DNA from: an uncultured virus (IMG/VR IMGVR_UViG_3300028327_000658)
Taxonomy: Duplodnaviria > Heunggongvirae > Uroviricota > Caudoviricetes
Length of the DNA stretch: 64,000 nucleotides
Strand: one strand, 5' to 3'
Virus record (IMG/VR): IMGVR_UViG_3300028327_000658
The notes below the pieces were generated by a model. That model was not told the origin of the DNA and did not search any database. It was given only the letters and a program-made list of their open reading frames with translations. A program made the translations under genes and the position numbers. Below, piece after piece: positions 3,177 to 34,209 of this stretch. Position 1 is the stretch's first letter, and the number at the start of each line of letters is the position of its first letter.

Positions 3177-3185
3177 CTTTTATTT

Positions 3186-3519: not shown

Positions 3520-3665
3520 CCGCCAAAACGTCACAGCGGCCACGCCAGCCCGCAAATTTCAGTCCACGCGCCCGCGAAGGGCACGACCTAAACCGCCAAA
3601 ACGTCACAGCGGCCCCGCCAGCCCGCAAGTTTCAATCCACGCGCCCATGAAGGGCACGACCTAAA
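3520..3665 (-). CRISPR. Orphan type I-C CRISPR-repeat-like tandem (2 repeats: 3629-3660 and 3556-3587); no cas genes in the window
   Basis: Minus strand GTCGTGCCCTTCATGGGCGCGTGGATTGAAAC and GTCGTGCCCTTCGCGGGCGCGTGGACTGAAAT: 32 nt, 7-bp hairpin, GGAYTGAAAY end. They are separated by 41 nt and form a 73-bp unit duplicated with 5 differences. Confidence 0.8.
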
Positions 3666-3679
3666 TGGGCAAAATCGCC

Positions 3680-4120
3680 CTAAAACGGCATCTCCTCCCC
3701 CCCAGAAGTATCCACCGGCAAAGCCGCCAAATCCTCGTCCGACAGCCCGGCGACATTTGGATCAGCCGGCGCGGTCCCCGCAACGTTCTTACCCGGCAGT
3801 ATCTGGAACCGGTCTACTTCGATGTCCGTCCGGTAATGCCGCTTTCCTCCCTCATCATCCCAAAAATGATACCGAATCTTGCCTTCCACCAAACAGCAAT
3901 CCCCTTTGTGTAAATATTCGTTGGCGATCTCTGCCGGTTTCCCCCATGCCACAATATGGTGCCAATCCGTCCTGCTGCCGTCTTGTTTGCCGTTCTTACC
4001 CTTCCACCGCTCCGTAGTAGCCAGCGAAAACTTCGTTACCATCCGGCCCTGCGGCGTAGTCCGGCTTTCAGGGTTTTCGCCTAAGTACCCGACAAGCGTA
4101 ACCCGATTCATGCAAGCCAT
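3680..4120 (-). CDS. ssb: Single-stranded DNA-binding protein
   Basis: MNRVTLVGYLG..PE.R, FSLATTERW, TDWHHIVAWGK.AE..YLHKG..VEGKIR and acidic tail EEMPF. Confidence 0.97.
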   Translation of the reverse strand: MACMNRVTLVGYLGENPESRTTPQGRMVTKFSLATTERWKGKNGKQDGSRTDWHHIVAWGKPAEIANEYLHKGDCCLVEGKIRYHFWDDEGGKRHYRTDIEVDRFQILPGKNVAGTAPADPNVAGLSDEDLAALPVDTSGGEEMPF

Positions 4121-4176
4121 ACAACGACCTCCTTTTCAAAGAATGTGTTTCCTCGCCGTGTTTAGGGCGAGCGAAT

Positions 4177-5346
4177 TTATAATGGATCCAACTTAATCCC
4201 GCCTTTCAACACCTCAAATTGAGCCGCCCTCACATTTGTAATCTTATGCGCTTCCGTGCCCAGCATCGCGCTCAACAGTTTCGCTTCCAGTATGGCGTGG
4301 AGCATCTTCTTGTTGTTCGCGTTCACATTCATAATCGAATACCACGCCGCCGCAAGCTCAACGCCGTTGATGCCGCCGTCCTCGATAAACTCCATTATCT
4401 TTTCATCGACATCGCCGAGACGCTCCAATTCGGCTTGCGCCCACTGCCTATACGCGAGACTGCCGGCCATCGCCTGGCTTATAACTATTTTATTCGACTC
4501 AACCGGCAGCGCATACTTCCGAAACCGGTCTTGCGGCAGCTTAATCTCTTGGCTTGTATCCGCAATGCCTAACGTCGGCTTTCTATCCTTTACATTGACA
4601 TATCCGCTGGAAAATTTAACGCCCTTGGATAACCATTTAATCCCGTTAGAATCAGAAATCAAATTATCGACATACTTCAAGACATTCCCCGAACTTATAT
4701 CTATGCCGCCGTCAGGAACTTTGACTGTCGATGACAACATCCCCCCGCCGATTGTATATGTATAGGTTTTATTTACCGTCGTCATCGTATCCCAAGTCTT
4801 TTCTAACCGCGCAATCTTACTGTCTAACGTTTTCGGCATCCGCTTTGCAGCTTCGATTTCTTCGTTGAAATCAACTATTTTTTGCAGTTGCGGCAGCAAA
4901 CCGTGATTCTCTGTAAACAACGACCCCGCATGATCAAACAACTGCGCATACGCTTTACCCATCTTTTCTATATAATCTTTAACATCGTTATATTTTTTGA
5001 CAAGGCTGCCCCACAGCTTTATTTCATCATAAACCAGGCGAACATACGTCCGCACCTTAAAGTAATCCGATACGATCCCCGCCGCGATACCCCAAGCGCG
5101 GCTGTCTTTTACCGGGTCGAATATCTTGTTGCTCATACTGAACCGCTTTCCGGTTGCTTGAATATTCGTGATAGCGTCCACGCATCCGGCGGCATCCCCC
5201 TGGAAAAGCAGTTCCGAGGCCGCCATGTATTCTCTCACTGTCTTCATAGTGGTCATGGCCTCATGGGTCTGTCCCGCAACTGCGGTAACCCCGCCGATTA
5301 CACATAAACAAATAATCGTGCTTATAATCCGCGTTTTCTTTTTCAT
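4177..5346 (-). CDS. Secreted helical protein, possible VirB5/TrbJ-like T4SS component
   Basis: Signal peptide, long amphipathic helices, located in the transfer gene run. Confidence 0.4.
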   Translation of the reverse strand: MKKKTRIISTIICLCVIGGVTAVAGQTHEAMTTMKTVREYMAASELLFQGDAAGCVDAITNIQATGKRFSMSNKIFDPVKDSRAWGIAAGIVSDYFKVRTYVRLVYDEIKLWGSLVKKYNDVKDYIEKMGKAYAQLFDHAGSLFTENHGLLPQLQKIVDFNEEIEAAKRMPKTLDSKIARLEKTWDTMTTVNKTYTYTIGGGMLSSTVKVPDGGIDISSGNVLKYVDNLISDSNGIKWLSKGVKFSSGYVNVKDRKPTLGIADTSQEIKLPQDRFRKYALPVESNKIVISQAMAGSLAYRQWAQAELERLGDVDEKIMEFIEDGGINGVELAAAWYSIMNVNANNKKMLHAILEAKLLSAMLGTEAHKITNVRAAQFEVLKGGIKLDPL

Positions 5347-5351
5347 GGCTC

Positions 5352-7298
5352 TTACCTCATTTTCTTTCTTGCTTCTGTTCTTAATTTTCTACGAGCGTCT
5401 TCGATTGCGACAGAATCTTTTACTTCGTTAAAAACGCTCCGAACGAAATTACGCAGATCTAAGTCATAAGAACACGTATACAAAAAATTATTGCACCCTT
5501 TTTGGGCATTCCGGGCTGTATCTCGAAAATTCACCTCCCACGTCTGCGGACAAAACGAAACCGCGTCGTTGATTTTCTGTGTCCATGTTTGCGGGAACTC
5601 CTTTCTGATTCTTGCGTTAAATTTAGCCTTATCCAAAAGCGCCGTACCTATCTGCACCGCCCTGCGCTTTAACAAAAAAACATCGCTCTTATCCGTGATA
5701 TGCTTATCTTTCCACGCCGCCCACAAAACATATAACGCATTGGACATGCTCATTTCATCGCAAAGCGGCGGTGTCCGATACAAAAACGACCGCAAATCGC
5801 TTGCCGTATACCCGTTCAGACTGTCTATCTGCAAACAAGGGCACCCATTGTAAACGTAACGGTTTTCGACATAGTTAGAATCAACGTCCGTTAAATCCAC
5901 AAGCGTCCCGCCGTTTATGTGGTCTGTCGGTTCATAGTAGTTTCCATCCCCCTTTTTTACTTTCCAATATTCATCCCTCACTTCCGGGAAGCGATACTTA
6001 TTCCCGATAGTTATATCCTTTGACTTCCAATCGGGGCATTCGCTGTACATTCTAACGATCTTGGCATCATCATCGTCAGATTCGGCGTACAACCGCAAAA
6101 CCCCTAAACCAACCTCATAGGACGATGTATTATTAAGCTTTACTATCCTGTCAGGCAACCGGTTAATGTAAAACCCCTCAAAACCCTTGTCCCTATACGA
6201 CGGGTCATCCTTAACCATACTCGTTTTAAGATGCTTTGAAGATACCGGCGATATCCCGTCCCAGAAAAACTGTGCTGAAACAACCGTTGACGCGCTGTCC
6301 GAGTAATACGGGCTGCGATACCAAATCCACTGCGCCATATAAGACGTATCCGGGTAGTACGGGTAAAAAATAGCCCCCGTATCACCGATATTGTTTATGC
6401 GCCTGATAGATTCAATACGGCGATCTCTCGCCACGAACATATTCATTACTAATGAATCGTTAAGCATCGGCTGACCGGACCGAGGCTGTTGTCTCGGATA
6501 CCATTTGGTGAGTGGGAACAGATGTATTTGATAAAATTTAAAGTCCGGGACAGCTGGTTTTGGTGCCTTTGACTGATATTCGTAACACCTCTCTTTATCA
6601 CAATAATCAATAAACTCTTTTTCTGCTTCATTTACATTCATTGAATTATAATAACGAACGCGCCTGTACTTAGCTGATATAGTTGTATCATTTAACTTTC
6701 CTGTATAAATATATTCGGCAGCTTTCTTATCTAACGGATTATCTCTTTCATAGTTAATAATCTCGACACAAATAGGTTTACTTTTATAATACGTCCCTTT
6801 ATACGATGGTGTCCATCTAACAAATTTCCCCGAAGTATCCGCCACGTCACGAACTCCCCAATACCCCGACGAGGCTGAATTTTTATTAAAATATTCATCG
6901 CACGACCACACCGTATCAGGAACGTTACGCCGCGATATAGACAAAACCGAATCTTTCGCTTCCCTATACGGTTTTTTCAAGTTATTTTCCATCCGTGAAA
7001 ACTGGTAATTAACTTCATTCAATAAATGCGCCGTGCTCTTAAAATTCAATCCCGTCAAATTCGCCCACTTCATGCTTATATCACCGTTATCATCATTCGG
7101 GAACGTAACCATAACCACGTGCGTAGGGACAGCCCCCGTAAACGACGGATAGACCCGATGATTATACCCTTTGCCGATAAGCCACGTTTGATTCCTCAAC
7201 GGAAATTTGCTCATTGATAATGTATCGCGGTCTTCCGACATTGCACTATTCGACAACGCAACGAGCAATATCATTATTTTTATAGCTGTTTTCATCAA
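5352..7298 (-). CDS. Secreted hypothetical protein (648 aa, Tyr/Cys-rich)
   Basis: Long ORF with signal peptide in the transfer gene run; no recognisable family. Confidence 0.6.
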   Translation of the reverse strand: MMKTAIKIMILLVALSNSAMSEDRDTLSMSKFPLRNQTWLIGKGYNHRVYPSFTGAVPTHVVMVTFPNDDNGDISMKWANLTGLNFKSTAHLLNEVNYQFSRMENNLKKPYREAKDSVLSISRRNVPDTVWSCDEYFNKNSASSGYWGVRDVADTSGKFVRWTPSYKGTYYKSKPICVEIINYERDNPLDKKAAEYIYTGKLNDTTISAKYRRVRYYNSMNVNEAEKEFIDYCDKERCYEYQSKAPKPAVPDFKFYQIHLFPLTKWYPRQQPRSGQPMLNDSLVMNMFVARDRRIESIRRINNIGDTGAIFYPYYPDTSYMAQWIWYRSPYYSDSASTVVSAQFFWDGISPVSSKHLKTSMVKDDPSYRDKGFEGFYINRLPDRIVKLNNTSSYEVGLGVLRLYAESDDDDAKIVRMYSECPDWKSKDITIGNKYRFPEVRDEYWKVKKGDGNYYEPTDHINGGTLVDLTDVDSNYVENRYVYNGCPCLQIDSLNGYTASDLRSFLYRTPPLCDEMSMSNALYVLWAAWKDKHITDKSDVFLLKRRAVQIGTALLDKAKFNARIRKEFPQTWTQKINDAVSFCPQTWEVNFRDTARNAQKGCNNFLYTCSYDLDLRNFVRSVFNEVKDSVAIEDARRKLRTEARKKMR

Positions 7299-7306
7299 CC
7301 GGCCCC

Positions 7307-7729
7307 TTAAAACATGTAATTTAGACCGCCGCCAATACCGTAATTGCTTACAGTGAAAGAAAACGCGCCGGCTTGTATTGATAACGCAATGTAATAATCT
7401 ACCCTGAAATCGCCATACGAATGCAAATAATACAGCGTCCCGGCTGAAACACCGGGACGCAAAATCGGCATAAGATAGTAAAAATAGCCGCCATAAAATC
7501 CGTACGCGGTTTCAATCCCCGCACCCGCATGGGGCGCGACAAACACAAGAACCCCGCTCTCATAATACTCAAATTTACGCTTATCGGGTCGCAACATATA
7601 CCCGGCAGTCGCAAGATAGGCATCCTCCTCCGTACTCCACGCTTTTTGGCCTCCCACCGCGATTCCGGCTGCACAAGCAACCCCGTGTAAACAAATAACA
7701 AAAAACACAAAAACAAGATATTTTCGCAT
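7307..7729 (-). CDS. Small outer-membrane beta-barrel-like protein (TraO-like position)
   Basis: Start MRKYLVFVFFVICLHGVACA is a signal peptide; alternating aromatic/Gly strands; C-terminal GGGLNYMF beta-signal. Confidence 0.55.
   Translation of the reverse strand: MRKYLVFVFFVICLHGVACAAGIAVGGQKAWSTEEDAYLATAGYMLRPDKRKFEYYESGVLVFVAPHAGAGIETAYGFYGGYFYYLMPILRPGVSAGTLYYLHSYGDFRVDYYIALSIQAGAFSFTVSNYGIGGGLNYMF
7509..7540 (-). repeat. Solitary type I-C CRISPR-repeat-like element inside a CDS
   Basis: GTCGCGCCCCATGCGGGTGCGGGGATTGAAAC (32 nt, stem CGCGCCC/GGGTGCG), translated in frame as VAPHAGAGIET. Confidence 0.8.
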
Positions 7730-7731
7730 AT

Positions 7732-8706
7732 TTACTGCTCTCCGTCCGTCATTTGGCGGCTCAACCGCTGTAAATCCTTCAGGGTCTGCATTTGCACGAT
7801 CCGCTGCTGTTCCTGCTGCACATCTACAAACGTCAGCAATTCCCGCGAATATAGCCCGTTCGGAAAACATGACAGATACTTCGACGCGGACGTTAAATCT
7901 TGATTCTTGCGGAAATCCGCATAGAGCAACTTCTGGTAAACCGAATCCACCATTTTATCCTTTTCAGGGTACACGACATAATATTGCTCTATTTTGTCGA
8001 TACTCGGCCAACGTTTCAGCGAGGAACGCCACTTGGCCTTGTGATTCGCTATCAAATCCCCGATTTCCTGAGTATATAACCCGGGATAATCTACCTTGAA
8101 CTGAAATAAATCCCCGATATTGCTCGAAGCCATTACGCCGACAAAAACATCACGGAAAGAAACTTCTACGATGTGCCGCAAAGAATCCAATACCGCGACA
8201 GACACATAGCGTAAGCCGGTCAAATCCTTTAATTTATCGAAACTGCCGTCAAAATATCTTAATACGCTTTGTTGATACAGTGTTTTATGCTTCCCTATTC
8301 CGGCCGTATCGCTCCCCCGCCCCGCTAAATAATCAAAATATTCGTCATACCTTTGAAGCAACTGATAATAATCGCCGCTTTTTAACACTTTTTCTAAATT
8401 TAATTCAAAACTGTCCGCAACTACCCGTAACGCGACATCATCGACAATATCTTTGATGCTGTCGTATAACGGACGCAATCCGCGACTTGACGGATCAAGC
8501 AAAATACTCTCATATTTCTCCACAATCCCCCGCCCGAAACGGATAACCCCGGCATAATTGCCGTCATTGTTCGCGATTTTTACGGCTTCGGCATCGCGAA
8601 CGAACTCTCGCCGCTCGGCCTTAGTCAGCGGTTTATAGTAGTTTTGCGCAAAACAAAACGCCGCAAATAACGTCAACGCAAAGCAACCATTAATCAAAAT
8701 CTTCAT
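7732..8706 (-). CDS. Secreted alpha-helical hypothetical protein
   Basis: Signal peptide; repeated Y...YP/FP motifs reminiscent of helical-repeat periplasmic proteins. Confidence 0.6.
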   Translation of the reverse strand: MKILINGCFALTLFAAFCFAQNYYKPLTKAERREFVRDAEAVKIANNDGNYAGVIRFGRGIVEKYESILLDPSSRGLRPLYDSIKDIVDDVALRVVADSFELNLEKVLKSGDYYQLLQRYDEYFDYLAGRGSDTAGIGKHKTLYQQSVLRYFDGSFDKLKDLTGLRYVSVAVLDSLRHIVEVSFRDVFVGVMASSNIGDLFQFKVDYPGLYTQEIGDLIANHKAKWRSSLKRWPSIDKIEQYYVVYPEKDKMVDSVYQKLLYADFRKNQDLTSASKYLSCFPNGLYSRELLTFVDVQQEQQRIVQMQTLKDLQRLSRQMTDGEQ

Positions 8707-9164
8707 TTTTTACCGTCCTTGCCTGAAAAAATACTGTCCGGCGATCGCGACGCGATCTTTCTGGCTTCTTCGAGGCTCTCAAACCCGAACAAACGCGCTT
8801 GCGCATCCGCAACTCGGGTACTGTCGCCCACAAGATCTTTATCCATCATCGACAGCTTATAGCTCGGATAAATGTTGAAAACGCCCAAAGACACCGCAAA
8901 TATTGCAAACATTACAATCAGCCACCGCTTTCTAATCTCGATTTTCCAAAACTTCTTCTCTTGCTCCTCTGCGTGTGTCTTCACCAAAACAAACAGAATC
9001 GTCAAAAAGCACACGAACAGCAAAATATTGCCTAACTTCCGCAAATTAGATATAAGCGCTAACTGTTGCGTTATTATAGGCTCCGTATTAAGCAACGCCT
9101 GATACATCAGCGCGACCATATAGCGAAACTGCCCCATAATGTACGATAGCGTATCGGAGGACAT
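8703..9164 (-). CDS. Membrane protein (2 TM)
   Basis: Two hydrophobic stretches; stop overlaps the start of the next gene. Confidence 0.6.
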   Translation of the reverse strand: MSSDTLSYIMGQFRYMVALMYQALLNTEPIITQQLALISNLRKLGNILLFVCFLTILFVLVKTHAEEQEKKFWKIEIRKRWLIVMFAIFAVSLGVFNIYPSYKLSMMDKDLVGDSTRVADAQARLFGFESLEEARKIASRSPDSIFSGKDGKK

Positions 9165-9166
9165 AT

Positions 9167-10342
9167 TTAGTACCTCACCGTTAATCTGCTCGTCAATAAA
9201 ATGCTGAACTGCGTCCCGACCGGCACCGTAACCGTATGAGGCCTTTCCACGCCGAATTTAGCGATCTCGTTCTGTATCTGCGGAAGCGTTTGGCCGACAA
9301 CCTCAGCCGTAATCGCGTCCCGCGTATCTATCCGGTCTCCCCCGCGATTGTTTGCGTTCCACGCGATAAACCCTCCGGTTATCGCCGCATTCGCGACTAT
9401 AGGGACCGCGCGGCTGCCGTAATGACGGTTTACTTTGCCGGTTACTCCCGGGAAACCCATCTCTATCTGACCCGACAAGGTATATTCCTCGCCCTTAAAC
9501 ACGATTTTCGCCACCTCTACAGGGATTCGGTCGTTTATTTGCCCGGATTGCTGACATATCAGCTGCGCCCCGCGCAGGACGTCAGGCCGGACGATCTTAG
9601 AGGTAAAAAAGCCGGGATGGTCACTGCTTACAAGTTGCTCGGTTATCGCGATTATACGGCTTCCTGACGGCAAAAAATACTCATACGGAGTCACCATGAG
9701 CGGCACGTCCGTCCGACCCTGCTGGCCATCGACGGCGTTGATGGCGATCTGCCTCGCTTCCGCCGCCGTTTTCAGCTTGCTTACCTCCGCATCCGGCAAC
9801 ATCCAAACATTGCCTTGATTCGCCTTGAAATGGCTCACTTTTGTTTGATAATCCGGCGAATACCGCTCCCAAGAACGCGATGAACGCATAAGCGGCGGCA
9901 AATCGACCTTTGGAATAGCCGGATGTTTTTGCTGAGCCTCCTGTAATTCGTTAATTTTACGTACAAGCTCTTCAAAACCCCGCGTTTGCACCGCCTGTAA
10001 CGCCCTGACATCCTGCCCCAAATTAACAATATTGGATTCTTGCACGTCTAACCGTTCATCGACGCTGCTCCCGGCTCCCGGCGTGGCGAGCGAGCTCAGC
10101 GAGGCCGACTTGCCGACCGCACCGCCGGCAGACGACGTTCCGCTTCCAGACCCGACACCGCCAGCTCCGCCACCGGAACCAACGCCGGGGGCTTGCGCCA
10201 CCACCGCCGGCACTTTAGCCTCTTTCGAGGGCGACGATGCAACAATGGCCGTCCCAAACCCTAACGTAGCGACGGAAGTTAACCCGAATAGGCACTTAGC
10301 CCCCGTACTAAGCCCCTTCCACGCATCTAAAATCTTTCCCAT
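9167..10342 (-). CDS. virB10: VirB10/TrbI-like T4SS core protein
   Basis: N-terminal TM, Gly-rich linker, coiled coil, then LPSGSRIIAITEQLVSSDHPG, GVTGKVNRHYG, HTVTVPVGTQFSILL. Confidence 0.8.
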   Translation of the reverse strand: MGKILDAWKGLSTGAKCLFGLTSVATLGFGTAIVASSPSKEAKVPAVVAQAPGVGSGGGAGGVGSGSGTSSAGGAVGKSASLSSLATPGAGSSVDERLDVQESNIVNLGQDVRALQAVQTRGFEELVRKINELQEAQQKHPAIPKVDLPPLMRSSRSWERYSPDYQTKVSHFKANQGNVWMLPDAEVSKLKTAAEARQIAINAVDGQQGRTDVPLMVTPYEYFLPSGSRIIAITEQLVSSDHPGFFTSKIVRPDVLRGAQLICQQSGQINDRIPVEVAKIVFKGEEYTLSGQIEMGFPGVTGKVNRHYGSRAVPIVANAAITGGFIAWNANNRGGDRIDTRDAITAEVVGQTLPQIQNEIAKFGVERPHTVTVPVGTQFSILLTSRLTVRY

Positions 10343-10366
10343 TTTTTTGCGCTCCTTTAACTGAAT

Positions 10367-11281
10367 TTATGATATATAGGCCGTGTAAGACAAGACCTTT
10401 GACCAAATCTCAAAAACAAACTGGATCCGCGAACGCTTGTTCCTTTCGGGCATTTGAAGCGGCACTTTATAAACGTAGGCCCACGTACCGTCCATGTTCT
10501 CCGTCGTGGACACATGATCTGCCGGCAAATCCGCCTGACCCTGCGTAATTTTCAACAGTTTCACTATGTCGCACATATCTTTCTTAACGTTTGCGTACAA
10601 ATATACGTATGCTTCGCCCCGAGTAAAGATAACCCCGTTGATAAACACCGTCGCTCCTTTATATTCAATCCTCATACTCCCCCGGCGATGGTTGAAAAAC
10701 GCCGGCAACGCCTCTACCATCGTGTTTTCGTACACGCTTTTGTTCAGCTCCTTCGTATTCGCCGCCACAGCCGCTTCAACTTCTGCGTCGCATGATTTTT
10801 CTTCAACGGCAACAGCTTCTTGCTTCTTCTCTAAAACAGTGAAATGGATCGCATAAACAACAGGATCGCCTTTAACGCCTCCGCGAATCTTAAATATCAG
10901 GTTCTTCGTCTCCCCTTCAGGCGTTATAACGTTGCAAACTATGCTTGTAGCTATAGCATGATCAATCGTCCGCGTAAAAAACAACGTATTCTGCATAACA
11001 AACGCGTTGATGAAATCAATCGAACCCGGCCGATTCAACGAAAAAGTATACCCTTTCGGCAGCGACACCATCGTTTCCACGTCCAAACTCGCTACAGTCT
11101 CGTATGTCTTGTCAAAATCCAAAACATACGTACCGCGCGGCTCAATCAGATAATACACCTGATGATTCGGCCAATCCGCGTCAACAGCACCCTGCGGCCC
11201 CGGCCCCTGCTGCGCTAACAACGGCATAGCGGCAATAACGCACAGCAACACAATCCTATTTAACGCTGTTAATCTGTTCAT
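10367..11281 (-). CDS. VirB9/TraN-like T4SS core protein
   Basis: Signal peptide, two beta-rich domains joined by a helical linker; lies between the VirB8-like and VirB10-like genes. Confidence 0.5.
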   Translation of the reverse strand: MNRLTALNRIVLLCVIAAMPLLAQQGPGPQGAVDADWPNHQVYYLIEPRGTYVLDFDKTYETVASLDVETMVSLPKGYTFSLNRPGSIDFINAFVMQNTLFFTRTIDHAIATSIVCNVITPEGETKNLIFKIRGGVKGDPVVYAIHFTVLEKKQEAVAVEEKSCDAEVEAAVAANTKELNKSVYENTMVEALPAFFNHRRGSMRIEYKGATVFINGVIFTRGEAYVYLYANVKKDMCDIVKLLKITQGQADLPADHVSTTENMDGTWAYVYKVPLQMPERNKRSRIQFVFEIWSKVLSYTAYIS

Positions 11282-11942
11282 TTAATTCTACGCTCCCTTC
11301 GTTTAAAATTTTTATATCCAATAAAACCAGTGAATGCGGTCTTTTCGTGTAATCAACATTGTTATTCAGCCGTCCCCATTCAACCCGTACATTGAATGTC
11401 TTTGTTTCTTTCGTCAAACCCCCTGCTTTTACTACGCGATGAATTGTTGCAAAAACAGTATAAAATGGATCATTGCGCTTTGTTATCTTCGGGTACATCT
11501 CCCACTTAATAAACGACTCTAACTGGTCCGTTATGCACTTTTTAACCTCTGCCCCATCCAAAAAATCACCCCCCAAACTATTCCGAAACGTCGCGTTCCC
11601 CAGCTCGTATACGCTCTTACGCGCGATTTCTATGTATTGATAGTCAAAATTGAAAAAATTCTCGCAAACTTGCGTGGTATAATAGATTAATTGCCTATCT
11701 ATCAAAACCTGCGCAACATTCGTACCCTGCGCTATCGGCGCGTAAGTCCGGCCGGTCGTCCCGTCAATCACCACTATCTGCGGCGGCCGCGACAGCGAAT
11801 TGAACAACATGAATATCAAAACCAACACAAATCCGGCCATCACAATAATGCCGATACGGGCATTAAAAGCCATCTGCAAGATTTGCTTCATGTAGAAGCG
11901 GTCTGTCCGCTCCGGCATATTCTTCTTTATTTCGTTTGCCAT
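11256..11942 (-). CDS. VirB8/TrbF/TraK-like inner-membrane protein
   Basis: Single TM then PQIVVIDGTTG, an NTF2-like region ending RPHSLVLLDI; synteny. Confidence 0.65.
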   Translation of the reverse strand: MANEIKKNMPERTDRFYMKQILQMAFNARIGIIVMAGFVLVLIFMLFNSLSRPPQIVVIDGTTGRTYAPIAQGTNVAQVLIDRQLIYYTTQVCENFFNFDYQYIEIARKSVYELGNATFRNSLGGDFLDGAEVKKCITDQLESFIKWEMYPKITKRNDPFYTVFATIHRVVKAGGLTKETKTFNVRVEWGRLNNNVDYTKRPHSLVLLDIKILNEGSVELNEQINSVK

Positions 11943-11955
11943 GTTTCACCGTTCC

Positions 11956-13503
11956 TTATTTATCCGAACTTTTGTCCGAACCGCTCGAACCGCTGGGTGT
12001 AGTGCCGCCGTTCCCAGAGCCTCCCGAACTGTTATTTGGGGCCGCAGAACCGCCTCCCTGTGCGCTGCTATTACCGCCGCCACCGCCGCCGCCTGAATTT
12101 GAAGCGTTATTCGTGCTATTCGAACCGCCGCCGGGCGTAGACGACCCTTTGTTGCTATTCGAACCGCCCCCAGACCCGGAAGCCGCAGTCGTTGCCGTAC
12201 CGCCCCCGCCACCGGGCGTATTACCGCCGCCGCCGGGCGTGCTGCCGCCGCCCCGACCCATCATCCTAGACGCTTCGCTTTTGGCCAGTTTGAACGCCGA
12301 ATCCCCAAAACTGGATAACTTCCCCCCTAATTCGGTATGTCCCCCCGCAACCTTACTGGCAACTTTCGCCCCCGCTCCGGCAATAACAGCCCCTCCGGCA
12401 ACAACCCCGCCAGATACAGCCCCAAAAGCAAACATCGACCCTACGCCGCCCGCGTTGCCGAAAATCGCCGCTGAAATCGGATACGACAGACATATCAAAA
12501 CCAAAGACAGTATGCCGTATATCATCGACAGCACTATATTTATAGCACCTTGAACTGCTGCCCCGAAATTATTGATTTCGCCATATACGTTCGCGCACCC
12601 TCCGGTTAAAACCGCCAAACTCGCGATTACACTCATGAAAGATATTGTCAGCAAAAACGAAAACCAATTCGTCGCGACATTCTTTGTTGCATCAAACAAC
12701 ATAAAAGGAATGCACAACGGCCCGATATACATCGCCAACATAAATATCAACGACTGCAAAAGCGGAAAAATCATATTCAAAATTATTGCAAAAATATAGA
12801 TTATACCTGATAATAGCGTACCGACAGTTGCCGAAGTCATAGCAACCGCGCCCCAAACTGTCGTCACACCACCCCATCCGGTAACTATATGATCTTTGAA
12901 TCCAATCAAAACATTCTTCATTATTGATCCTGCAATAGCATCCGTTATCCCCCCTACACAATCCACCACCAAATACAAATATATCGACGGTGTCAGCAAA
13001 ATAGCGACTAACAACACCCGCGCGATATTTTTCTGTAAAACACGCATTGGATGAACACCCTGGCCAAGCACATTATTGACATAATCTAAAAGCAACTGCA
13101 CCAAAAACAACGCAAACCCAAGAAGCAATCCGATTCGACACAAACCGCCGATATTTTGCTCTACTGTCGCTCTGTTCTTATCAACATATCTCCCTGCGTA
13201 CCAAAGTTTTGCAAACAATTCATTTAAAAACTTATTAAGTTTCTTTTGCTCTTTATCTTTCACAGTAAGGTTTACTAAAGAATCATATTCATCGTTAATC
13301 CGATCCATATCCATACCGGGATATGCAGACACTTCAATCACAAGTTCTAAATTATTATTAACTGTTTTAGCATCCAAACACTTCCCTTCACTCTCCACAT
13401 AGTAATGACCTGGAGGACATGACTTTACATCCTCTCCCTCGGCAAACGCAGATATAACACACATAAAAAACACTAAAACAGCAAAATTCAATGTCTTTTT
13501 CAC
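11956..13503 (-). CDS. VirB6/TrbL-like polytopic membrane protein with Gly/Ser-rich tail
   Basis: Multiple TMs, IGPLCIPFMLFDATKNVATNWF motif, long G/S/N tail. Confidence 0.75.
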   Translation of the reverse strand: MKKTLNFAVLVFFMCVISAFAEGEDVKSCPPGHYYVESEGKCLDAKTVNNNLELVIEVSAYPGMDMDRINDEYDSLVNLTVKDKEQKKLNKFLNELFAKLWYAGRYVDKNRATVEQNIGGLCRIGLLLGFALFLVQLLLDYVNNVLGQGVHPMRVLQKNIARVLLVAILLTPSIYLYLVVDCVGGITDAIAGSIMKNVLIGFKDHIVTGWGGVTTVWGAVAMTSATVGTLLSGIIYIFAIILNMIFPLLQSLIFMLAMYIGPLCIPFMLFDATKNVATNWFSFLLTISFMSVIASLAVLTGGCANVYGEINNFGAAVQGAINIVLSMIYGILSLVLICLSYPISAAIFGNAGGVGSMFAFGAVSGGVVAGGAVIAGAGAKVASKVAGGHTELGGKLSSFGDSAFKLAKSEASRMMGRGGGSTPGGGGNTPGGGGGTATTAASGSGGGSNSNKGSSTPGGGSNSTNNASNSGGGGGGGNSSAQGGGSAAPNNSSGGSGNGGTTPSGSSGSDKSSDK

Positions 13504-13591
13504 GTTTAGCTCCTTATTTTATTGTAGATAAAAACGACCCCAAAAGATAAACCGACCCGCCAAATCCTCTGGGATCGCCACTTCCATATCG

Positions 13592-14737
13592 TTACTTTCC
13601 GCTTCCGCCTCCACCTCCGCTTCCACCCCCGCCTCCGCCTCCATCCCCGCTTCCACCTTGACCGCCCCCGCTCTGGTTACCCTGACCGCCCCCCCTTGCT
13701 CCGCCTGTCCCGGCAATGTTTTTTAACCTTGCAAGGTAATTTTTGGCCTTATATGTCTCACCGACAACAGAATTTATTATCGTCCCGGCCACCGCCACCG
13801 GCATCAAATACACCGTCAAACCACAAATAAAACTCAAAATCAGCCCCACCGCGCCGAACGCTCCGCTTCGAAAAATTTGCGCAATCACAAAAGTCACCAG
13901 CGTCAGATACGCCAAAACTAGTATCCCATAAAGCAACGCTTGTAAATATTGTAAAAGCAACATCCCTTCTGCTATCAACTCCAATAATCCTGTCGCACCA
14001 AGAGTTACTAAACCAATTATCGTAATAAACGCAAAAAAGACGCTTCCCAATAAAAAATTTATCCACGCTTTTACTATCCCTCCCCAAAGCGGGGAAAATG
14101 CCATACATATCGGTCCCATTAACAACGCAATAAACATAAAAAAAGGTCCTAACGACATAAATAATACCAAAAATATCAATATCAGCTGTACCACTATTAT
14201 CAATGTCGTCAAAAGTTGCGGAAACACAAAAAATACCGCAGCCGAAAGTATGTTGCCGACCGTTCTCCCTATGGCTTGAAAAAAACTCAACGCCTCTGAT
14301 CCATCCGGTGCTTGTAACGTAATTAAAAAATAACGAATTTGCACTCGAAACTGCTGCATACCCTTTTGCGCCACACCGCCGTTAAACGCTTGTACCACAC
14401 CGACTATCCAATCACATATAACACCATAAAACACCCCAAAAAATATCACCACTAACAATGATTTTGCAAATATAGCGATATAATCTCTTATGTTAAATTC
14501 AAACCCTTTTTCAACAAACTTGTGAACTATCGCTATCAACGTAATTCCAAACAACAACAACATTCCAATCCTGCTCATCCCGCCGACCACGCCCGAATCC
14601 GTCAATGTCGTCCAAAAAGATGACGTATTAAACACTCCTTCGTACGCCGACAATTTATCTAACGCATCCAACGCATCCCCTGCCAGCTTTTGAACACCTT
14701 TAATTCCAGAGAGCGTTTTGGTAGTATCAACCGCCAT
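13592..14737 (-). CDS. Second VirB6/TrbL-like protein
   Basis: Multiple TMs, MGPICMAFSPLWGGIVKAWINF motif, Gly-rich tail. Confidence 0.75.
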   Translation of the reverse strand: MAVDTTKTLSGIKGVQKLAGDALDALDKLSAYEGVFNTSSFWTTLTDSGVVGGMSRIGMLLLFGITLIAIVHKFVEKGFEFNIRDYIAIFAKSLLVVIFFGVFYGVICDWIVGVVQAFNGGVAQKGMQQFRVQIRYFLITLQAPDGSEALSFFQAIGRTVGNILSAAVFFVFPQLLTTLIIVVQLILIFLVLFMSLGPFFMFIALLMGPICMAFSPLWGGIVKAWINFLLGSVFFAFITIIGLVTLGATGLLELIAEGMLLLQYLQALLYGILVLAYLTLVTFVIAQIFRSGAFGAVGLILSFICGLTVYLMPVAVAGTIINSVVGETYKAKNYLARLKNIAGTGGARGGGQGNQSGGGQGGSGDGGGGGGGSGGGGGSGK

Positions 14738-18064: not shown

Positions 18065-18093
18065 AATTATCCACCTTTAAGTAAACTTATACA

Positions 18094-24658: not shown

Positions 24659-25701
24659 AATTGCAAAAACCTTTCCGAATTAACAATAACATCGTCCAAG
24701 CTATCCATTTGATAAAACATACTACGCTCAGCTTGCCCCGGAAAACTGGATATATATTGCTCAGTCATAACGTTCGTATGTACATAAACCGATAACTCGT
24801 TCGCCAACAGAACATTCTTCATATCTTCTAATATCTTTGCAAAATTTTTATCGTCGCTGCCAAACATCAGAACATTATTATAAAAACACAATCGCATTGA
24901 ATCTATCTTTCTTAGTCTAAATTCGTCATCAACATCAACCTCTCTATTCAAGCCGTCTACTAAGTGAAACACTCTCTCAAAGCTCTCTCGACAAACTTCC
25001 GCATACTGATCTGATGGAACACACACTGAAAACACCTGCAAATAATCGAACTTATTCAATATGCCGCTACACTCAATATCGCTTAAATCGTTCAAAGAAG
25101 ACATCCCCAATACTCTGTTCTCGCCCAGCCGAAGCACCTTTTTTTCATCCACACACGGAACGCTTTTTAAGACAATTTCATCATTTTCTACGCCGCAATT
25201 CAACAAAAAATCATGTACTTTACTGACAAAACGCATCGGCGACAACATTTGAACACCGTCGTCTGAACACAGCAACTTTTCAACCCCGGCGACAACCGTG
25301 CTTGTCGCGTCATCAATTTTTTTTAAACTATCCTCGCTCCCGCGCAAAAACCACTTAGAAACCTCAAAAAAAGCACTTTTTAACACAGAATAATCCATAT
25401 ACGCCTTTATACAGCCCCAATACTGCGTAATTCCAGATAACCGCAATTTATAAACTTGCAATGTTGATCGAAACGTCAAAAACTCAGTTACTTTCCTCAC
25501 AAAACCCTCAAAAACCTTGATCTGAAAATAAAAAACAACCGCCCCGTCATTCGATATACAGTAACTATTCCCGTTTCTATCCACGCCGTTAGACGACACC
25601 TCACAGAAAAAAGGAAATAGGTCGGAATGTGTTATATTGATAACACCGTGCCCGTCATTCTCTTGGAATAAGTCAATCCTTTCCTTCAGAGCCGTTTTCA
25701 C
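24655..25701 (-). CDS. Hypothetical protein resembling the VirB4 N-terminal domain without the ATPase domain
   Basis: C-terminal QYISSFPGQ parallels VirB4 AYFSLLPGN at a comparable position; no Walker A. Confidence 0.4.
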   Translation of the reverse strand: MKTALKERIDLFQENDGHGVINITHSDLFPFFCEVSSNGVDRNGNSYCISNDGAVVFYFQIKVFEGFVRKVTEFLTFRSTLQVYKLRLSGITQYWGCIKAYMDYSVLKSAFFEVSKWFLRGSEDSLKKIDDATSTVVAGVEKLLCSDDGVQMLSPMRFVSKVHDFLLNCGVENDEIVLKSVPCVDEKKVLRLGENRVLGMSSLNDLSDIECSGILNKFDYLQVFSVCVPSDQYAEVCRESFERVFHLVDGLNREVDVDDEFRLRKIDSMRLCFYNNVLMFGSDDKNFAKILEDMKNVLLANELSVYVHTNVMTEQYISSFPGQAERSMFYQMDSLDDVIVNSERFLQL

Positions 25702-26874: not shown

Positions 26875-27888
26875 CTAAAATGTAATGCTGTACCACACCA
26901 AATAACCGCCTAAACCCAATCCCGCCGCCATAAATCCAAGTCCAAGCCCCGTATGCAAGTCTACATCCCCTTTCAGCTCCTTTAACCGCTCCTGCCCGGC
27001 CGCGTAACCAACGCCGACCGCTTTCGGATCATAATCGTTGTACTCCTTCGCCGAACCCGCCCACCTGCCCATATAAAACGCCCCGGTAACCGCGCAACCG
27101 AGCGCAATCGGCCCCAAAACCTTCAGCCGCTGCGGGAGGCGCATCTTCCCCTCTGCCGCCTTATAATCCGCGTTTAACGGCGGTTTCAATTCACGCGTCT
27201 GCGACGACGCGACATAATCAATCGGAACCGCCGAGACCGCCGGGGTCGCCGGAACCGCCGAGACTGCCGGAACCGCTGGAACAGCCGAGGTCGCTGGAGC
27301 CACTGGAGCCGCCGGAGCCGCTGAGGCCGCTGGAACCGCCGAAGCCGACACGACAGGTGTCTTCTCTGCCGGTGTTTTTTCGTAACGTATCGGCGGCTCG
27401 TAAGTTATCGGCTCCCTGTCAAAGACCGTAAACCGTTTGTCCCTTATCTGCAAATTCACCCCGTTCGCCCAAAACGAGGTATTTAAGAGCTTAATATTAT
27501 CGCCGCAGCAAGACTTAACGCCGACGCTGGCATTGGATATCGCCGCATACCGGATATCGACGGTTCCGCCCTGGAACACCTTAATCCCGGCCCAGTCATG
27601 CGGAGCTCCGGCGCCCGATTTAGCCCGTAACGACATCAATAACACCGGTTCCTGCGGCTTCCCGTCTATGATCAGCGTCCCCTTTACGTCCAATCCGGCA
27701 AGCGGGGCGAAATACACCTTCAACCCCGCCGGGATAACCAAGCCGTCCCCAGGTTTGACCTCGTACGACTCCTGAACGATAAAGATACCCTCTTTTTCGT
27801 CGTACTTGGCAACCCGCTCAATGGACAATAGCTCACCAAAAGACCCTGTCACAAACAAACAAAAAACAAAAAATAGCTTAATCCTCAT
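26875..27888 (-). CDS. Secreted beta-helix-like protein with Ala/Pro/Val linker and C-terminal hydrophobic segments
   Basis: VKPGDGLVIPAGLKVYF..LDVKGTLIIDG..EPVLLMS..WAGI pattern; repeated SAVPA linker at about 27225-27350. Confidence 0.6.
   Translation of the reverse strand: MRIKLFFVFCLFVTGSFGELLSIERVAKYDEKEGIFIVQESYEVKPGDGLVIPAGLKVYFAPLAGLDVKGTLIIDGKPQEPVLLMSLRAKSGAGAPHDWAGIKVFQGGTVDIRYAAISNASVGVKSCCGDNIKLLNTSFWANGVNLQIRDKRFTVFDREPITYEPPIRYEKTPAEKTPVVSASAVPAASAAPAAPVAPATSAVPAVPAVSAVPATPAVSAVPIDYVASSQTRELKPPLNADYKAAEGKMRLPQRLKVLGPIALGCAVTGAFYMGRWAGSAKEYNDYDPKAVGVGYAAGQERLKELKGDVDLHTGLGLGFMAAGLGLGGYLVWYSITF
27183..27213 (-). repeat. Solitary type I-C CRISPR-repeat-like element inside a CDS
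   Basis: GTCGCGTCGTCGCAGACGCGTGAATTGAAAC (31 nt, perfect stem CGCGTC/GACGCG), reads VASSQTRELK. Confidence 0.7.
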
Positions 27889-30047: not shown

Positions 30048-30085
30048 GATAAACTCCTTTTTTATTGAAAATTTGAAAGAAATAG

Positions 30086-31160: not shown

Positions 31161-31363
31161 GCCTCTTTCCGTTTTCTTTTCTTTTTCTTACTTGATTTAG
31201 CCTTCACTCTACGTTCCAAATCCGACTGCACCCGCAACCCCATCGCAACAATACGTTCTTTGGATTCGCCGGACACCCGCCCCAGCAACCGATGTATCAA
31301 TCCGAAAAACAATATCGACATCGCGACAAACAATAACGACCAGATCATCAGATCGCTCTCCAA
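31157..31363 (-). CDS. Small membrane protein with basic tail
   Basis: One TM, Lys/Arg-rich C-terminus, overlapping neighbours. Confidence 0.45.
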   Translation of the reverse strand: MESDLMIWSLLFVAMSILFFGLIHRLLGRVSGESKERIVAMGLRVQSDLERRVKAKSSKKKKRKRKEA

Positions 31364-31665
31364 ATTTTCAGCTGCTCCCGTTGAAAATATTTCACGGGTA
31401 CACTGATTGTAAAACCCTTATGCACACCTAATTGCATTATAGCCTCATCGTCAATCGCCGCCTCAGCCGACAGCGGTCCCCAAAATACCATATCACGAAC
31501 ACCAGGCCATATTTCAATCTCCCACACCGAACCTAAATCTTCCGTCCCTAAAAACATAACTATATCGCCGACACGGATTTCCTTGCCGTCGCAATCATAA
31601 TACTTCGGCATTTCAGGCACATATTCTTCTTTCTTTTTTCCAAAAATTCCCCAATGGATCTTCAT
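31348..31665 (-). CDS. Hypothetical protein (SH3/YopX-like start)
   Basis: YDCDGKEIRVGDIV motif; SD AGGGG upstream. Confidence 0.5.
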   Translation of the reverse strand: MKIHWGIFGKKKEEYVPEMPKYYDCDGKEIRVGDIVMFLGTEDLGSVWEIEIWPGVRDMVFWGPLSAEAAIDDEAIMQLGVHKGFTISVPVKYFQREQLKIWRAI

Positions 31666-31686
31666 TTGACACCCCTATCGCCAAGA

Positions 31687-34209
31687 TCAATTAAACACAT
31701 ACTCCACCTTTTTTGACTCGCAATTCAACCGCAACCGCGCCGGAAAAACCTTTCCGCCCTTTTTGACCGACACAAACCCATCTATCTTATCCCGCGTCTC
31801 CCCGCTCAAAAACAGTTCCCTCACCACCGCCTCGGTCACATTCGGACTTCCGTTTTTATATATAACAAACCCGCACTTCGCCCTCTCACCGCAACACGCA
31901 AATCCGCTGTCGTTTTCCACCATAGGCGAACCGCAAAATTTACATTTCAAATCCAGCTTCTTTACCTCTCCCCCGACAGCCGACTCCAACTTACCGCTCT
32001 TATCATCCAAATACACCATTATATCATACTTTTTACCGGCCTTGCTTACCAAACCGGATACTTTCACCTGTTCGCCGCGAAACAGCTTCTCTAACATTTT
32101 TCTGTTGACCGCGTTATCTTTACCCCTAAACTTTTTATATACAATAAACTCACAGCCGCTATAATCATACGTCCCTTGCTCATTCTTCACACTCTTACGG
32201 TTTTCACAAACAAAGACACTCTCCGTCTCGAATATCGCCCCGCCGCACTTCCGGCATTTCAATCCCGTGTCTTCACCGCGTTTTTCGGCCCACGGCCACA
32301 CCACCTTGCCGACCAGCGGCCGCATATCTTCCGTAAATTCTTTGCAAAACGCTCCAAATCCACGGCAAAATTCCTCCAAACTAAGCTCGCCGCACTCGAC
32401 CAATTTCAGCTGTAACTCCATTTCCGCTGTAATTTCCGGTGTTTTCAGCTTAAACGGCATCACCTCTTCGATCAGTTTACGCCCTTTTTCCGTTGACCGA
32501 TAGCTGCCGTCTTCTTCGACGATATATCCGACATCTTTGAGCGTGTCAGGGAACGACGACTGCGTCGCCGGTGTCCCTATGCCTTGCGTTTCCGACAGCA
32601 TCTTCTTATATTTCGGGTTAATCACATCCTTGCCGCATTTCTGCATGGCCGTCACCAGCGTCGCTCCGATATAATATTTCGGCTTCGAACGCTTAATTCT
32701 CGGTAAATCCATATCATCTAACCCCGCCAGCAAACCACGTAACTTTTCCTCGTTCAGCCGTTCCGACATCTCCTCCACTGCTTCGCCTTGCTCGTCGCTT
32801 TCTTCTTCTTGTTTCAATCCGCGCGTCTGTAACAACGCGACATAATCCAAATACCCGCGCTCCAAATTCACCTTGACAGATGCCCGGAAAACTGCCGGTT
32901 CCGCCCATTCTATCGCCGCCGGCTCCCCCGCTCTATCCTCTTCTATCTCCAATTTATATTGCAAATACCGATTCGACGCCATGAACGACACTATCAATCG
33001 ATTTTTAATCAATTCGTACAAATTCAAGTGATCCTTTGTAAATTCCTCTTTTTTAGCACTCTTCAACGCCTCAACCGACACACCGGTCGGCGCTATCGCC
33101 GTATGCGCGGACTCCGTATTTTTCACACAATCCGGTTTCACCGTTTCAGCCACCAAATACTTCCGTTGGTCAGCGTCCGCCAGCTCCCGCACCAAACCGT
33201 GATATATCGCCAAATCGCTCTCAGGCATACACGATGAATCTGTCCTCGGATAAGTCACAAGTTTCCACTCGTACAAATCCTGCAACAACGCATCCGTCTT
33301 TTTCAACGGGAGTTTCAACTCCTTATTCGCCGCTTTCTGCAAATCGGCTATATTAAACGGATGCGGAGGATTCTTTATTCCCTCGGCTTCCGAAAATTCC
33401 TTCAACTTAAACTTCCTGCCCTCCAGCATTTTCAACACCGACTGCAAATCAGACTCGCTTTCAAACTTCGTTTCCTTGCCCCGACAGTACAAAAACTTTA
33501 TCCCTGCCCACTTCCCGCGCAACTGATAATAAAACGATTCCTTATATCCCTCCACCTCCTTATCCCGATCAACTATCATCCGCAACACCGTCGTCTGCAC
33601 ACGGCCGACGGATAATCCGTACTCCCCGGTCACGGCGGCTGCCGCCCGACTGCCTGTCATACCGACTTCCCAATCCGCCAACGTACGGCCGGTACACGCA
33701 TCCGCCAGATTTTTGTACTCAGACAAATCTTTCATGGACGACCAGCTCTTATCCAAATCGCTGTCAGTCAAACTCTTGGCCCACAGCCGCAACATCTTAG
33801 GCCGCTCCATTTTGTAAAAACCGAATAACCTCGAAAATATCCCTTGACCCTCGCGGTCGGGGTCAGTCGCGCAAATGACTGTGTCGCACTGACTCGCCAA
33901 TTCACATATTAAATGGCCGCGATCTTCTTTGGATTTATCCGTAAATTTATACGGCAACCTGCTCAAATCTTCCAGCAATATAGGCAAATACTTAAATCCC
34001 GTACCCTTTTCTCTATACTTCTTGTCATAGTCGCCAGGCAACGGTAAACCAAGCAAATGCCCGAAACACCACGTTATATAGTAGTTCGCCGACTCGAAAT
34101 ATCCCGACTTCTTCGCAAACTTCTCGCCGCCGACGTTACGCTCCACCATTTGCACGTAAATCTCGGCCTGAGAGGGCTTTTCAGCCACTAATAACGTTTT
34201 TCCTGACAT
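31687..34209 (-). CDS. topB: DNA topoisomerase III (type IA) with C-terminal zinc-ribbon repeats
   Basis: AEKPS, TWCFGHLL, ATDPDREG, SVGRVQT, catalytic LVTYPRTDS, GIGTPAT. Confidence 0.96.
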   Translation of the reverse strand: MSGKTLLVAEKPSQAEIYVQMVERNVGGEKFAKKSGYFESANYYITWCFGHLLGLPLPGDYDKKYREKGTGFKYLPILLEDLSRLPYKFTDKSKEDRGHLICELASQCDTVICATDPDREGQGIFSRLFGFYKMERPKMLRLWAKSLTDSDLDKSWSSMKDLSEYKNLADACTGRTLADWEVGMTGSRAAAAVTGEYGLSVGRVQTTVLRMIVDRDKEVEGYKESFYYQLRGKWAGIKFLYCRGKETKFESESDLQSVLKMLEGRKFKLKEFSEAEGIKNPPHPFNIADLQKAANKELKLPLKKTDALLQDLYEWKLVTYPRTDSSCMPESDLAIYHGLVRELADADQRKYLVAETVKPDCVKNTESAHTAIAPTGVSVEALKSAKKEEFTKDHLNLYELIKNRLIVSFMASNRYLQYKLEIEEDRAGEPAAIEWAEPAVFRASVKVNLERGYLDYVALLQTRGLKQEEESDEQGEAVEEMSERLNEEKLRGLLAGLDDMDLPRIKRSKPKYYIGATLVTAMQKCGKDVINPKYKKMLSETQGIGTPATQSSFPDTLKDVGYIVEEDGSYRSTEKGRKLIEEVMPFKLKTPEITAEMELQLKLVECGELSLEEFCRGFGAFCKEFTEDMRPLVGKVVWPWAEKRGEDTGLKCRKCGGAIFETESVFVCENRKSVKNEQGTYDYSGCEFIVYKKFRGKDNAVNRKMLEKLFRGEQVKVSGLVSKAGKKYDIMVYLDDKSGKLESAVGGEVKKLDLKCKFCGSPMVENDSGFACCGERAKCGFVIYKNGSPNVTEAVVRELFLSGETRDKIDGFVSVKKGGKVFPARLRLNCESKKVEYVFN
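32811..32841 (-). repeat. Solitary type I-C CRISPR-repeat-like element inside topB
   Basis: GTCGCGTTGTTACAGACGCGCGGATTGAAAC; 26/31 identical to the 27183 copy, with the same GATTAT 5' flank; reads VALLQTRGLK. Confidence 0.6.

Follow-up and report, generated by a model that had tools for sequence, protein, structure and literature searches.

In the 64,000-nucleotide (nt) stretch of the uncultured-virus record IMGVR_UViG_3300028327_000658 (IMG/VR), here called the window, a conjugative plasmid-like element carries five genuine type I-C CRISPR repeats. All five (c1–c5) lie on the minus strand; c1 and c2 form an intergenic tandem pair, and c3, c4 and c5 are written in frame into genes of a long transfer-gene run. 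We tentatively propose, by analogy with described systems, that they are solitary repeat units (SRUs) acting as mimics in the manner of RNA anti-CRISPRs (Racrs), partly embedded in coding mRNA. Because we infer expression, binding and benefit alike, our confidence in this proposal stays somewhat short of even.

Five type I-C repeats in the window

The units are 31–32 nt long, start with GTCG, contain a G+C-rich inverted repeat and end in (G/A)A(T/C)TGAAA(C/T) (Table 1). A first-pass annotation of the window had placed five such units on the minus strand, and reading of the sequence at each place, a motif search and a covariance model all agree with it. The motif given in that annotation occurs five times, always on the minus strand, against 0.16 occurrences expected in the window, and none of 100 dinucleotide shuffles gave more than two. 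The covariance model, R1, has a 7-bp stem and was built from one repeat each of 32 natural arrays with distinct repeats in other genomes; natural arrays for this purpose were fetched from public genomes (at least 122 loci, many with tens of repeats). Since they were fetched by fixed end motifs taken from the window, the ends of R1 are not independent of it; c1 and c2 break the fetching motif, yet they score in R1. A scan of the whole window with filters off returned exactly the five units as significant matches and none on the plus strand. The next match, also on the minus strand, is a possible degenerate sixth unit inside the open reading frame (ORF) 24655–25701; its stem is shortened and its tail differs at one position.

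Each unit folds alone into a stem of 6–7 bp (8 bp in the minimum-energy fold of c3) with a loop of 5–6 nt and a 3' tail of 11 nt (10 nt in the minimum-energy fold of c3); in c1 the stem has 7 bp, the loop 5 nt and the tail 11 nt. Type I-C repeats are characterized by a length of 31–32 nt, a 5' GUCGC, a G+C-rich 6–7-bp stem, a 4–6-nt loop and an 11-nt tail ending in AUUGAAAC, and c1–c5 share these features with the exception of the c2 tail, which has two changes. An array of the same family on plasmid pDV of Nitratidesulfovibrio vulgaris Hildenborough adjoins the annotated genes cas3-cas5c-cas8c-cas7c-cas4-cas1c-cas2 in the same orientation, which assigns the repeat family to type I-C. Length, stem and AUUGAAAC tail are thus those of canonical I-C arrays such as the one on pDV, but the window has no cas operon, no leader and no series of unique 32–38-nt spacers next to its units. 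The claim that cas genes are missing holds within the 64-kb window: none was found with Pfam (52 ORFs), NCBIfam (30) or PADLOC (20), and a tblastn search of seven pDV I-C Cas proteins against its six frames gave a best E-value of 0.047. The features of a functional CRISPR-Cas locus, cas genes and a series of unique spacers of about 32–38 nt, are therefore absent from the window, and the units are laid out as three solitary copies and one pair 41 nt apart.

We regard it as scarcely credible that the units are chance resemblances, by-products of the encoded peptides or assembly artefacts at CRISPR repeats. Two weak points could be held in favour of this explanation: no Rfam family reaches its gathering score in the window, with CRISPR-DR9 matching only c5 and c3 weakly at a relaxed threshold, and assemblers can be misled by short repeats. 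In 500 synonymous-codon shuffles of the 28 coding sequences of the run (31,266 nt), however, the motif occurred 0.048 times on average and at most once, against three observed copies, and the motif together with a stem of at least six pairs was seen in 4 of the 500. Given the encoded peptides and the plasmid's own codon usage, the probability of the exact codons is 1.5e-6 for c3, 4e-5 for c4 and 1e-5 for c5. These values, the R1 E-values and the two kinds of shuffle set aside chance and peptide-driven resemblance, and the units stand out in the covariance-model scan and the codon-shuffled controls alike, a comparison that the first-pass annotation had suggested. Against an artefact, reading frames and homology run on unbroken through c3, c4 and c5, and an independently built 35-kb contig of one termite-gut run covers 3046–21999 without a difference.

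Table 1. Repeat units c1–c5, the sequences around them and other genes of the window (aa, amino acids; HTH, helix-turn-helix; T4SS, type IV secretion system)
Feature	Position	Strand	Remarks
c1, 32-nt intergenic unit	3629–3660	minus	begins 19 nt past the ssb stop codon; R1 45.2 bits, E 2.5e-10
c2, second unit of the pair	3556–3587	minus	3' tail with two changes (GGACUGAAAU); R1 31.8 bits, E 1.5e-6
c3, 32-nt unit	7509–7540	minus	in frame in a 140-aa signal-peptide protein, encodes VAPHAGAGIET; R1 39.2 bits, E 1.2e-8
c4, 31-nt unit	27183–27213	minus	in frame at the end of an Ala/Pro/Val-rich linker, encodes VASSQTRELK; 6-bp stem; R1 34.7 bits, E 2.3e-7
c5, 31-nt unit	32811–32841	minus	in frame in topB (from codon 457, variable acidic loop), encodes VALLQTRGLK; R1 29.3 bits, E 7.6e-6
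Possible degenerate sixth unit	25573–25597	minus	GUCG..CGUGGAUAGAAAC; R1 15.2 bits, E 0.074, not significant alone
Tandem duplication of 73 bp	3520–3665	minus	2.0 copies, 93% alike; each with a repeat unit and a 41-nt G+C-rich stretch
c4 with flanks	27163–27219	minus	GATTAT, repeat, 14 nt, GATTAT
ssb	3680–4120	minus	Pfam SSB 9.3e-32; TIGR00621; directly upstream of c1
82-aa ORF	3186–3434	minus	directly downstream of c2/S2; Pfam HTH_26/19/31 at 15–16 bits, below cut-off
c3 host gene, small protein family	7307–7729	minus	conserved C-terminal GIGGGLN..F; barrel-like/envelope protein
c4 host gene, 337 aa	26875–27888	minus	conserved N-terminal domain, linker, C-terminal membrane segment; homologues P0155–P0157, L123
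topB (DNA topoisomerase III), carries c5	31687–34209	minus	Pfam Topoisom_bac 5.8e-75, Toprim, Toprim_Crpt; NCBIfam topB
VirB4/TraC-like ATPase, marker of the T4SS run	21944–24658	minus	Pfam P-loop_TraG 9.3e-27; TIGR02746 2.8e-50
Coupling protein and TrwC-type relaxase-helicase	46095–52133	plus	Pfam TrwB_AAD_bind 1.4e-73, TrwC 1.1e-65
Polyvalent protein, 2039 aa	55937–62056		RadC/JAB, PBECR3, ART-PolyVal and Toprim domains

Units within genes and the intergenic pair

The first-pass annotation had spoken of in-frame repeat copies inside genes. Such copies are c3, c4 and c5, each of which begins at the first base of a codon, but c1 and c2 are intergenic. In the protein family that hosts c3 (37 relatives at E ≤ 1e-3, the best 62% identical), the unit exactly fills the gap between two conserved blocks, a place taken in the homologues by a variable loop of about 24 residues. 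The segment with c4 is 51 nt (17 aa) extra relative to the homologues and has GATTAT at both borders: the homologues pass from DY at once to D/K-A-I/A-x-GK, whereas the window encodes DY, the repeat, 14 further nt and DY again. At the c5 site LKGKG or G-RGVG stands in the two nearest TopB homologues (identities of 69% and 56%), which are five residues shorter there. The net change in length accordingly differs between the sites (+5 aa for c5, +17 aa for c4 and about −13 aa for c3). As the nearest homologues (56–69% identical) have other residues or a gap at these places, c3, c4 and c5 are secondary gains, and the element gained units at least three or four separate times.

A 37-nt unit that includes the GATTAT ahead of the repeat is common to c4 and c5 (86% identical), and homologues of both the c4 gene and topB already have DY at the point of the GATTAT. 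A preference for this word or copying between the sites could account for its presence at both. In addition, 16 nt of the flank that follows c4 (27160–27175) recur exactly in codons 4–9 of ORF 4177–5346 (5321–5336). Both places contain GATTAT, and the match has an E-value of 0.007 in a search of about 1.3 Mb.

The pair c1/c2 arose as one tandem duplication, and the five repeat copies of the first-pass annotation therefore stand for four loci and not for five independent events. The 41-nt stretches that go with the two repeats, S1 (3588–3628) and S2 (3515–3555), are copies of each other and about 95% identical. No terminator-like site was found between ssb and the pair. The 82-aa ORF that follows it shows weak, sub-threshold similarity to Cro/C1-type HTH proteins.

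The repeat-spacer-repeat layout of c1-S1-c2 invites the explanation that the pair is a guide-making mini-array, processed like a CRISPR RNA precursor (crRNA-like or Cracr-like) into an RNA with a 41-nt guide. The solitary units would then yield 5'-tagged RNAs with the downstream message as guide, and host Cascade, instead of only being titrated, would be turned on a cas promoter, a further defence gene or a competing plasmid. The second repeat is degenerate here as in known regulatory mini-arrays, and the 41 nt lie one 6-nt step above the common spacer length of 35 nt. Cascade extends in 6-nt steps. According to a preprint, cas-less repeat-spacer-repeat units that silence cas promoters occur on phages and plasmids, are sometimes multiplexed and include two-spacer type I-C ones (Cracr/crlRNA mini-arrays; bioRxiv 10.1101/2024.10.29.618823). 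However, spacers of those mini-arrays partly match cas or toxin promoters (same preprint), whereas S1 and S2 are near-identical copies and not two guides. No target of either was found in the window or the fetched loci, and the candidate host phylum (296 genomes) gave none at up to three mismatches, a search that did not include seed-only matches. The sequences that follow c3–c5 likewise yielded no target. Moreover, a length of at least 40 nt is reached by only 2 of the 1316 natural I-C spacers, so that 41 nt is outside the usual length. Taken together, a guide-making role appears quite unlikely to us.

The distances of the units to natural repeats, given here for the nearest among the matches listed from the at least 122 loci, differ from unit to unit. 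Two differences separate c1 from the array repeat of L074, L079 and L086, and three separate c2 from that of L019, L022 and L112, which include a metagenome-assembled genome (MAG) of the Fibrobacterota. The third unit, c3, has two differences from the repeat of L120, L034 and L115 and from that of the Fibrobacterota array L241. In c4 about four letters differ from the array repeat of L014, two of which form a compensatory change from C-G to U-A. All stem changes of c1, c2 and c3 are G-U compatible. Likewise, the five differences between c4 and c5 are confined to the loop, a C-G to U-G wobble in the stem and tail positions 21 and 23, of which position 23 also varies among natural repeats and position 21 only among the copies of the window. 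This pattern is small in numbers, and should c4 and c5 derive independently from a pair of related arrays, it would reflect selection in those arrays and not on the plasmid. The element carries units of at least two repeat subtypes, in the groups c1/c2, c3 and c4/c5.

The main rival to mimicry, which we consider rather unlikely, holds that the units are scars left when the plasmid recombined with CRISPR arrays of its hosts. A host spacer would have been taken from the plasmid, and recombination between spacer and protospacer with an illegitimate second junction would have brought a copy of the adjacent repeat onto the plasmid; of the products, only those in frame and in tolerant loops would survive. 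Such scars could be neutral, or they could be kept because the end of the repeat replaces the protospacer-adjacent motif, so that the plasmid copy resembles the array and escapes that spacer. Several observations fit this account. After c3 and c5 the native conserved sequence resumes at once, as a junction of repeat plus spacer would give, the net changes in length are as untidy as expected after frame filtering, the repeat subtypes differ among sites, and the tail of c2 looks decayed. A degenerate solitary unit on a Fibrobacterota chromosome lies in a setting without obvious function. In addition, the introduction of the Racr paper refers to older suggestions that SRUs may allow viruses to integrate into CRISPR arrays (PMC10651486). 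On the other hand, none of the 1316 natural I-C spacers (190 from Fibrobacterota and 1126 from other arrays) matches the plasmid beyond short or low-complexity stretches, and the sequences after c3–c5 match none of them. The 37-nt unit of c4 and c5 includes a GATTAT outside the repeat that no array would supply, and 14 extra nt separate the c4 repeat from native sequence. Finally, scars predict neither the sense orientation of five of five units nor differences that spare the structure, unless acquisition was strand-biased and the events are recent. A match of 28 of 32 letters between a spacer of L038 and 38233–38264 was dismissed as low complexity, since it falls in an A/T-rich tandem repeat.

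A possible role as RNA anti-CRISPRs

Camara-Wilpert et al. 2023 report that SRUs act as RNA anti-CRISPRs, in that the mimic binds Cas proteins and aberrant complexes result (PMC10651486). Their set includes 90 SRUs on plasmids, and RacrIC1, which shares a transcript with acrIC5, follows it at a distance of 11 nt and is cut from that transcript, inhibits type I-C on its own (PMC10651486). Cas5d recognizes the stem base and the 3' overhang of the repeat and leaves an 11-nt tag (PMC5965381). By analogy, the units of the window would be transcribed sense-wise within the plasmid's own messages, c1/c2 in the stretch after ssb and c3–c5 within the coding regions of the envelope protein, the T4SS-run protein and topB. 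In a host or recipient with a type I-C system, Cas5c/d would recognize the stem base and the 11-nt 3' tail, bind and cut, and the fragments would sequester Cas5, Cas7 and Cas8c in complexes that lack a usable guide. Interference against the plasmid would be weakened in this way, as has been shown for SRUs. The coding copies lie in loops and linkers that accept any sequence, and it is there that a densely coding plasmid can keep such units. Here c1/c2 would represent the conventional form and c3–c5 a form embedded in coding sequence, able to survive only at places that the protein can spare.

Several findings are consistent with mimicry. The folds retain stem base and 3' overhang in all five units, and all five as well as the marginal sixth are in sense orientation. 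The differences among the copies spare the structure, and the coding copies were gained separately. Whereas the 64 kb of the window contain five units, R1 gave no match better than E 0.7 in the 1.1 Mb (1,103,086 bases) of 80 related metagenome T4SS loci with genes for VirB4 relatives. These loci are among the matches listed in a metagenome search and are distant relatives with VirB4 identities of at most 49%. Targets exist: the same sample contains I-C arrays, and in the candidate host phylum, the Fibrobacterota, R1 detects I-C repeats, mostly in arrays, in 32 of the 151 genomes searched. The element also invests in counter-defence with its 2039-aa polyvalent protein, which has weak PADLOC matches of BrxP-like and DRT-like type. 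Polyvalent proteins of such domain make-up are carried by conjugative elements for the recipient cell. The first-pass annotation had suggested a decoy of this kind inside transfer genes; true I-C units in uniform sense orientation, a window without cas genes and three in-frame copies in the transfer run all agree with it, while two of the units lie outside genes.

Other observations weigh against mimicry. The units c4 and c5 are about four and about five letters away from the nearest sampled natural repeat, and an array of their exact type was found neither in viral contigs (0 matches) nor among the at least 122 loci listed. The two changes of c2 affect a tail that is otherwise invariant, and c2 may be decaying. 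No sigma-70-like promoter of their own was found ahead of c1/c2. About 13 kb of the longest contig that bears the window's proteins (77,183 nt) lie outside the window, and the negative result for cas genes covers the 64 kb of the window. The trait is not conserved, since the relatives examined (L123–L126 and the genomes G434, G478, G417 and G664) carry no solitary units; genomes with the nearest VirB4 relatives have arrays or nothing. Cutting inside topB and the other genes would destroy those messages, which would be a cost, and recombination with arrays could yield the same sequences without any function.

A further explanation, also suggested by the first-pass annotation, is that the units are a Cas5-dependent switch. 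Cutting would lower expression of topB, the T4SS and the envelope protein in hosts with active type I-C systems and so tie transfer to the CRISPR state of the host. Three units lie in coding regions of the transfer run, where cleavage would part the 5' from the 3' portion of the messages, and engineered Cas6-family hairpins in mRNAs are reported to control stability and translation (PMC4604432). However, a switch has no evident benefit for the plasmid, the units are scattered in loops and not at regulatory positions, and related elements do without them. We consider this explanation very improbable.

Returning to mimicry, the window resembles known SRUs and Racrs in having repeat copies with a CRISPR-repeat fold on a mobile element without array or cas genes beside them and in the proposed binding of Cas proteins, and the position of c1 behind ssb recalls that of RacrIC1 behind acrIC5 (PMC10651486). 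It differs in carrying five units at four loci and of at least two subtypes on one element, three of them in frame in genes. A typical SRU or Racr is an intergenic small RNA, often just downstream of a promoter, whereas c1/c2 have no predicted promoter and c3–c5 are coding. SRUs and Racrs are often found next to acr or aca genes; here the 82-aa ORF with sub-threshold Cro/C1 HTH similarity follows c2. In the published search for SRUs, ORFs are masked, matches within genes count as probable false positives and paired units are discarded as mini-arrays, so that in-frame copies escape it and the tandem pair c1/c2 would be set aside (PMC10651486). The first-pass annotation had not recognized in-frame copies as a described arrangement, which is in line with this masking.

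Repeat units on mobile elements without cas genes are already known. In a limited search of the literature on RNA anti-CRISPRs and solitary repeats, we found no description of in-frame repeat copies in genes, although the supplementary SRU tables of the Racr study could hold cases of plasmids with multiple copies. What appears to be new here, and what we did not find described, is that one element combines an intergenic tandem pair with in-frame copies that were each gained secondarily within a variable loop. One could go further and suppose that these coding-embedded mimics let the ordinary sense transcripts of the plasmid double as sponges for Cas5c/Cascade, with the subtypes c1/c2, c3 and c4/c5 covering several I-C variants across the host range; we offer this broader idea with considerable doubt.

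SRUs are an established counter-defence of phages, are carried by a few plasmids and have been sought only between genes. The in-frame gains suggest that coding regions can host mimics, and current counts of SRUs are therefore probably underestimates. If mimicry is true, RNA anti-CRISPRs need neither a gene nor a promoter of their own, and surveys with masked ORFs have missed a class. Synonymous recoding could remove the RNA element without touching the protein, which makes for a clean experiment. If the units are scars, they constitute a physical record of past encounters between a plasmid and host arrays, and such a record would help to assign plasmids to their hosts in metagenomes.

Relatives, candidate host and gene content

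DNA of the window is present in termite-gut metagenome runs, and none of the runs listed as matching 3000–8000 was RNA. Termite-gut runs of three other studies hold only short identical pieces with no variant at the units, and positions not covered carry no weight in this comparison. The termite-gut run with the 35-kb contig also contains contigs of the form repeat, 27–36 nt, repeat that align to c1/c2 or c3, at a depth of 3–5 compared to about 25 for the plasmid. As this run may be the source of the window, its I-C arrays are evidence of co-occurrence and not an independent confirmation.

Almost all known relatives of the VirB4 protein come from metagenomes; closer ones, found as proteins, are 83%, 59%, 57% and 55% identical. 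A search with this single protein gave nothing in genome contigs and nothing in viral contigs, and a PLSDB megablast with 3000–9000 gave no match. VirB4 relatives (32–47% identity) were found in 9 of 296 species-representative genomes of the Fibrobacterota, the phylum of the MAG G403, whose repeat is three letters from both c1 and c2. Repeats near c1–c3 do not identify a host, since they also occur in other phyla; the host is possibly a member of the Fibrobacterota. Treponematales were considered because several termite Treponema MAGs have single motif matches, and they were rejected since a VirB4 relative was found in none of 401 genomes and in none of the five of a smaller set. The Rpn-family gene of the window has its best Treponematales match at 62% identity, with matches in 4 of 301 genomes.

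A single R1 match is present in 6 of the 151 Fibrobacterota-phylum genomes. Five of these were inspected: three matches lie at contig ends and two are internal degenerate solitary I-C units, both intergenic and chromosomal (L232, 1501–1533, on G418:C127; and L233, on G469:C542). One of the two adjoins what we take, from peptides read by eye, to be a HicB-like antitoxin gene and a probable murA gene. A PLSDB blastn search with a natural I-C repeat, which has low sensitivity for a 32-nt query, returned nine records, seven of them arrays and two solitary units, neither under an annotated gene.

The window as a whole encodes a TrwC-type relaxase-helicase, a coupling protein, VirB4, ParA, a resolvase and the polyvalent protein, and the presence of coupling protein and relaxase-helicase identifies a conjugative plasmid-like replicon. 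Its long minus-strand run comprises topB and genes for the VirB4/TraC-like ATPase and for TrbL/VirB6-, TrbI/VirB10- and VirB2-like proteins, with ssb as the last gene. The first-pass annotation had taken topB as the first gene of the run; topB does carry c5, but the run seems to begin upstream with ORF 35459–37561. At 35459–37606 two ORFs on opposite strands (700 aa on the minus and 699 aa on the plus strand) overlap over nearly their full length. Both are without Pfam or NCBIfam match, and GC skew favours the minus-strand ORF. Just upstream of the apparent start of the run, an 11-bp word (TTTTTGCAACA) is repeated three times perfectly at 37629–37661 and may be an operator or promoter region.

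Further repeats occur elsewhere on the element. About 13 copies of an iteron-like 20-bp unit (80% matches) at 43197–43468 lie just upstream of an ORF (43664–45268) whose 534-aa product belongs to no known family, and the two may be the replication origin and its initiator. A 47-bp G+C-rich unit is present in 6.7 copies at 53337–53653, between an HTH_17/excisionase-like ORF (52774–53316) and a serine resolvase gene (53711–54301). At the end of the window with the Rpn/PDDEXK_2 gene (2020–3200), a 115-nt direct repeat (92%) occupies 2180–2294 and 2420–2534, and contigs of three other termite-gut runs skip 2021–2295. Depth at this end exceeds that elsewhere on the plasmid about threefold, which indicates that it is common to other replicons.

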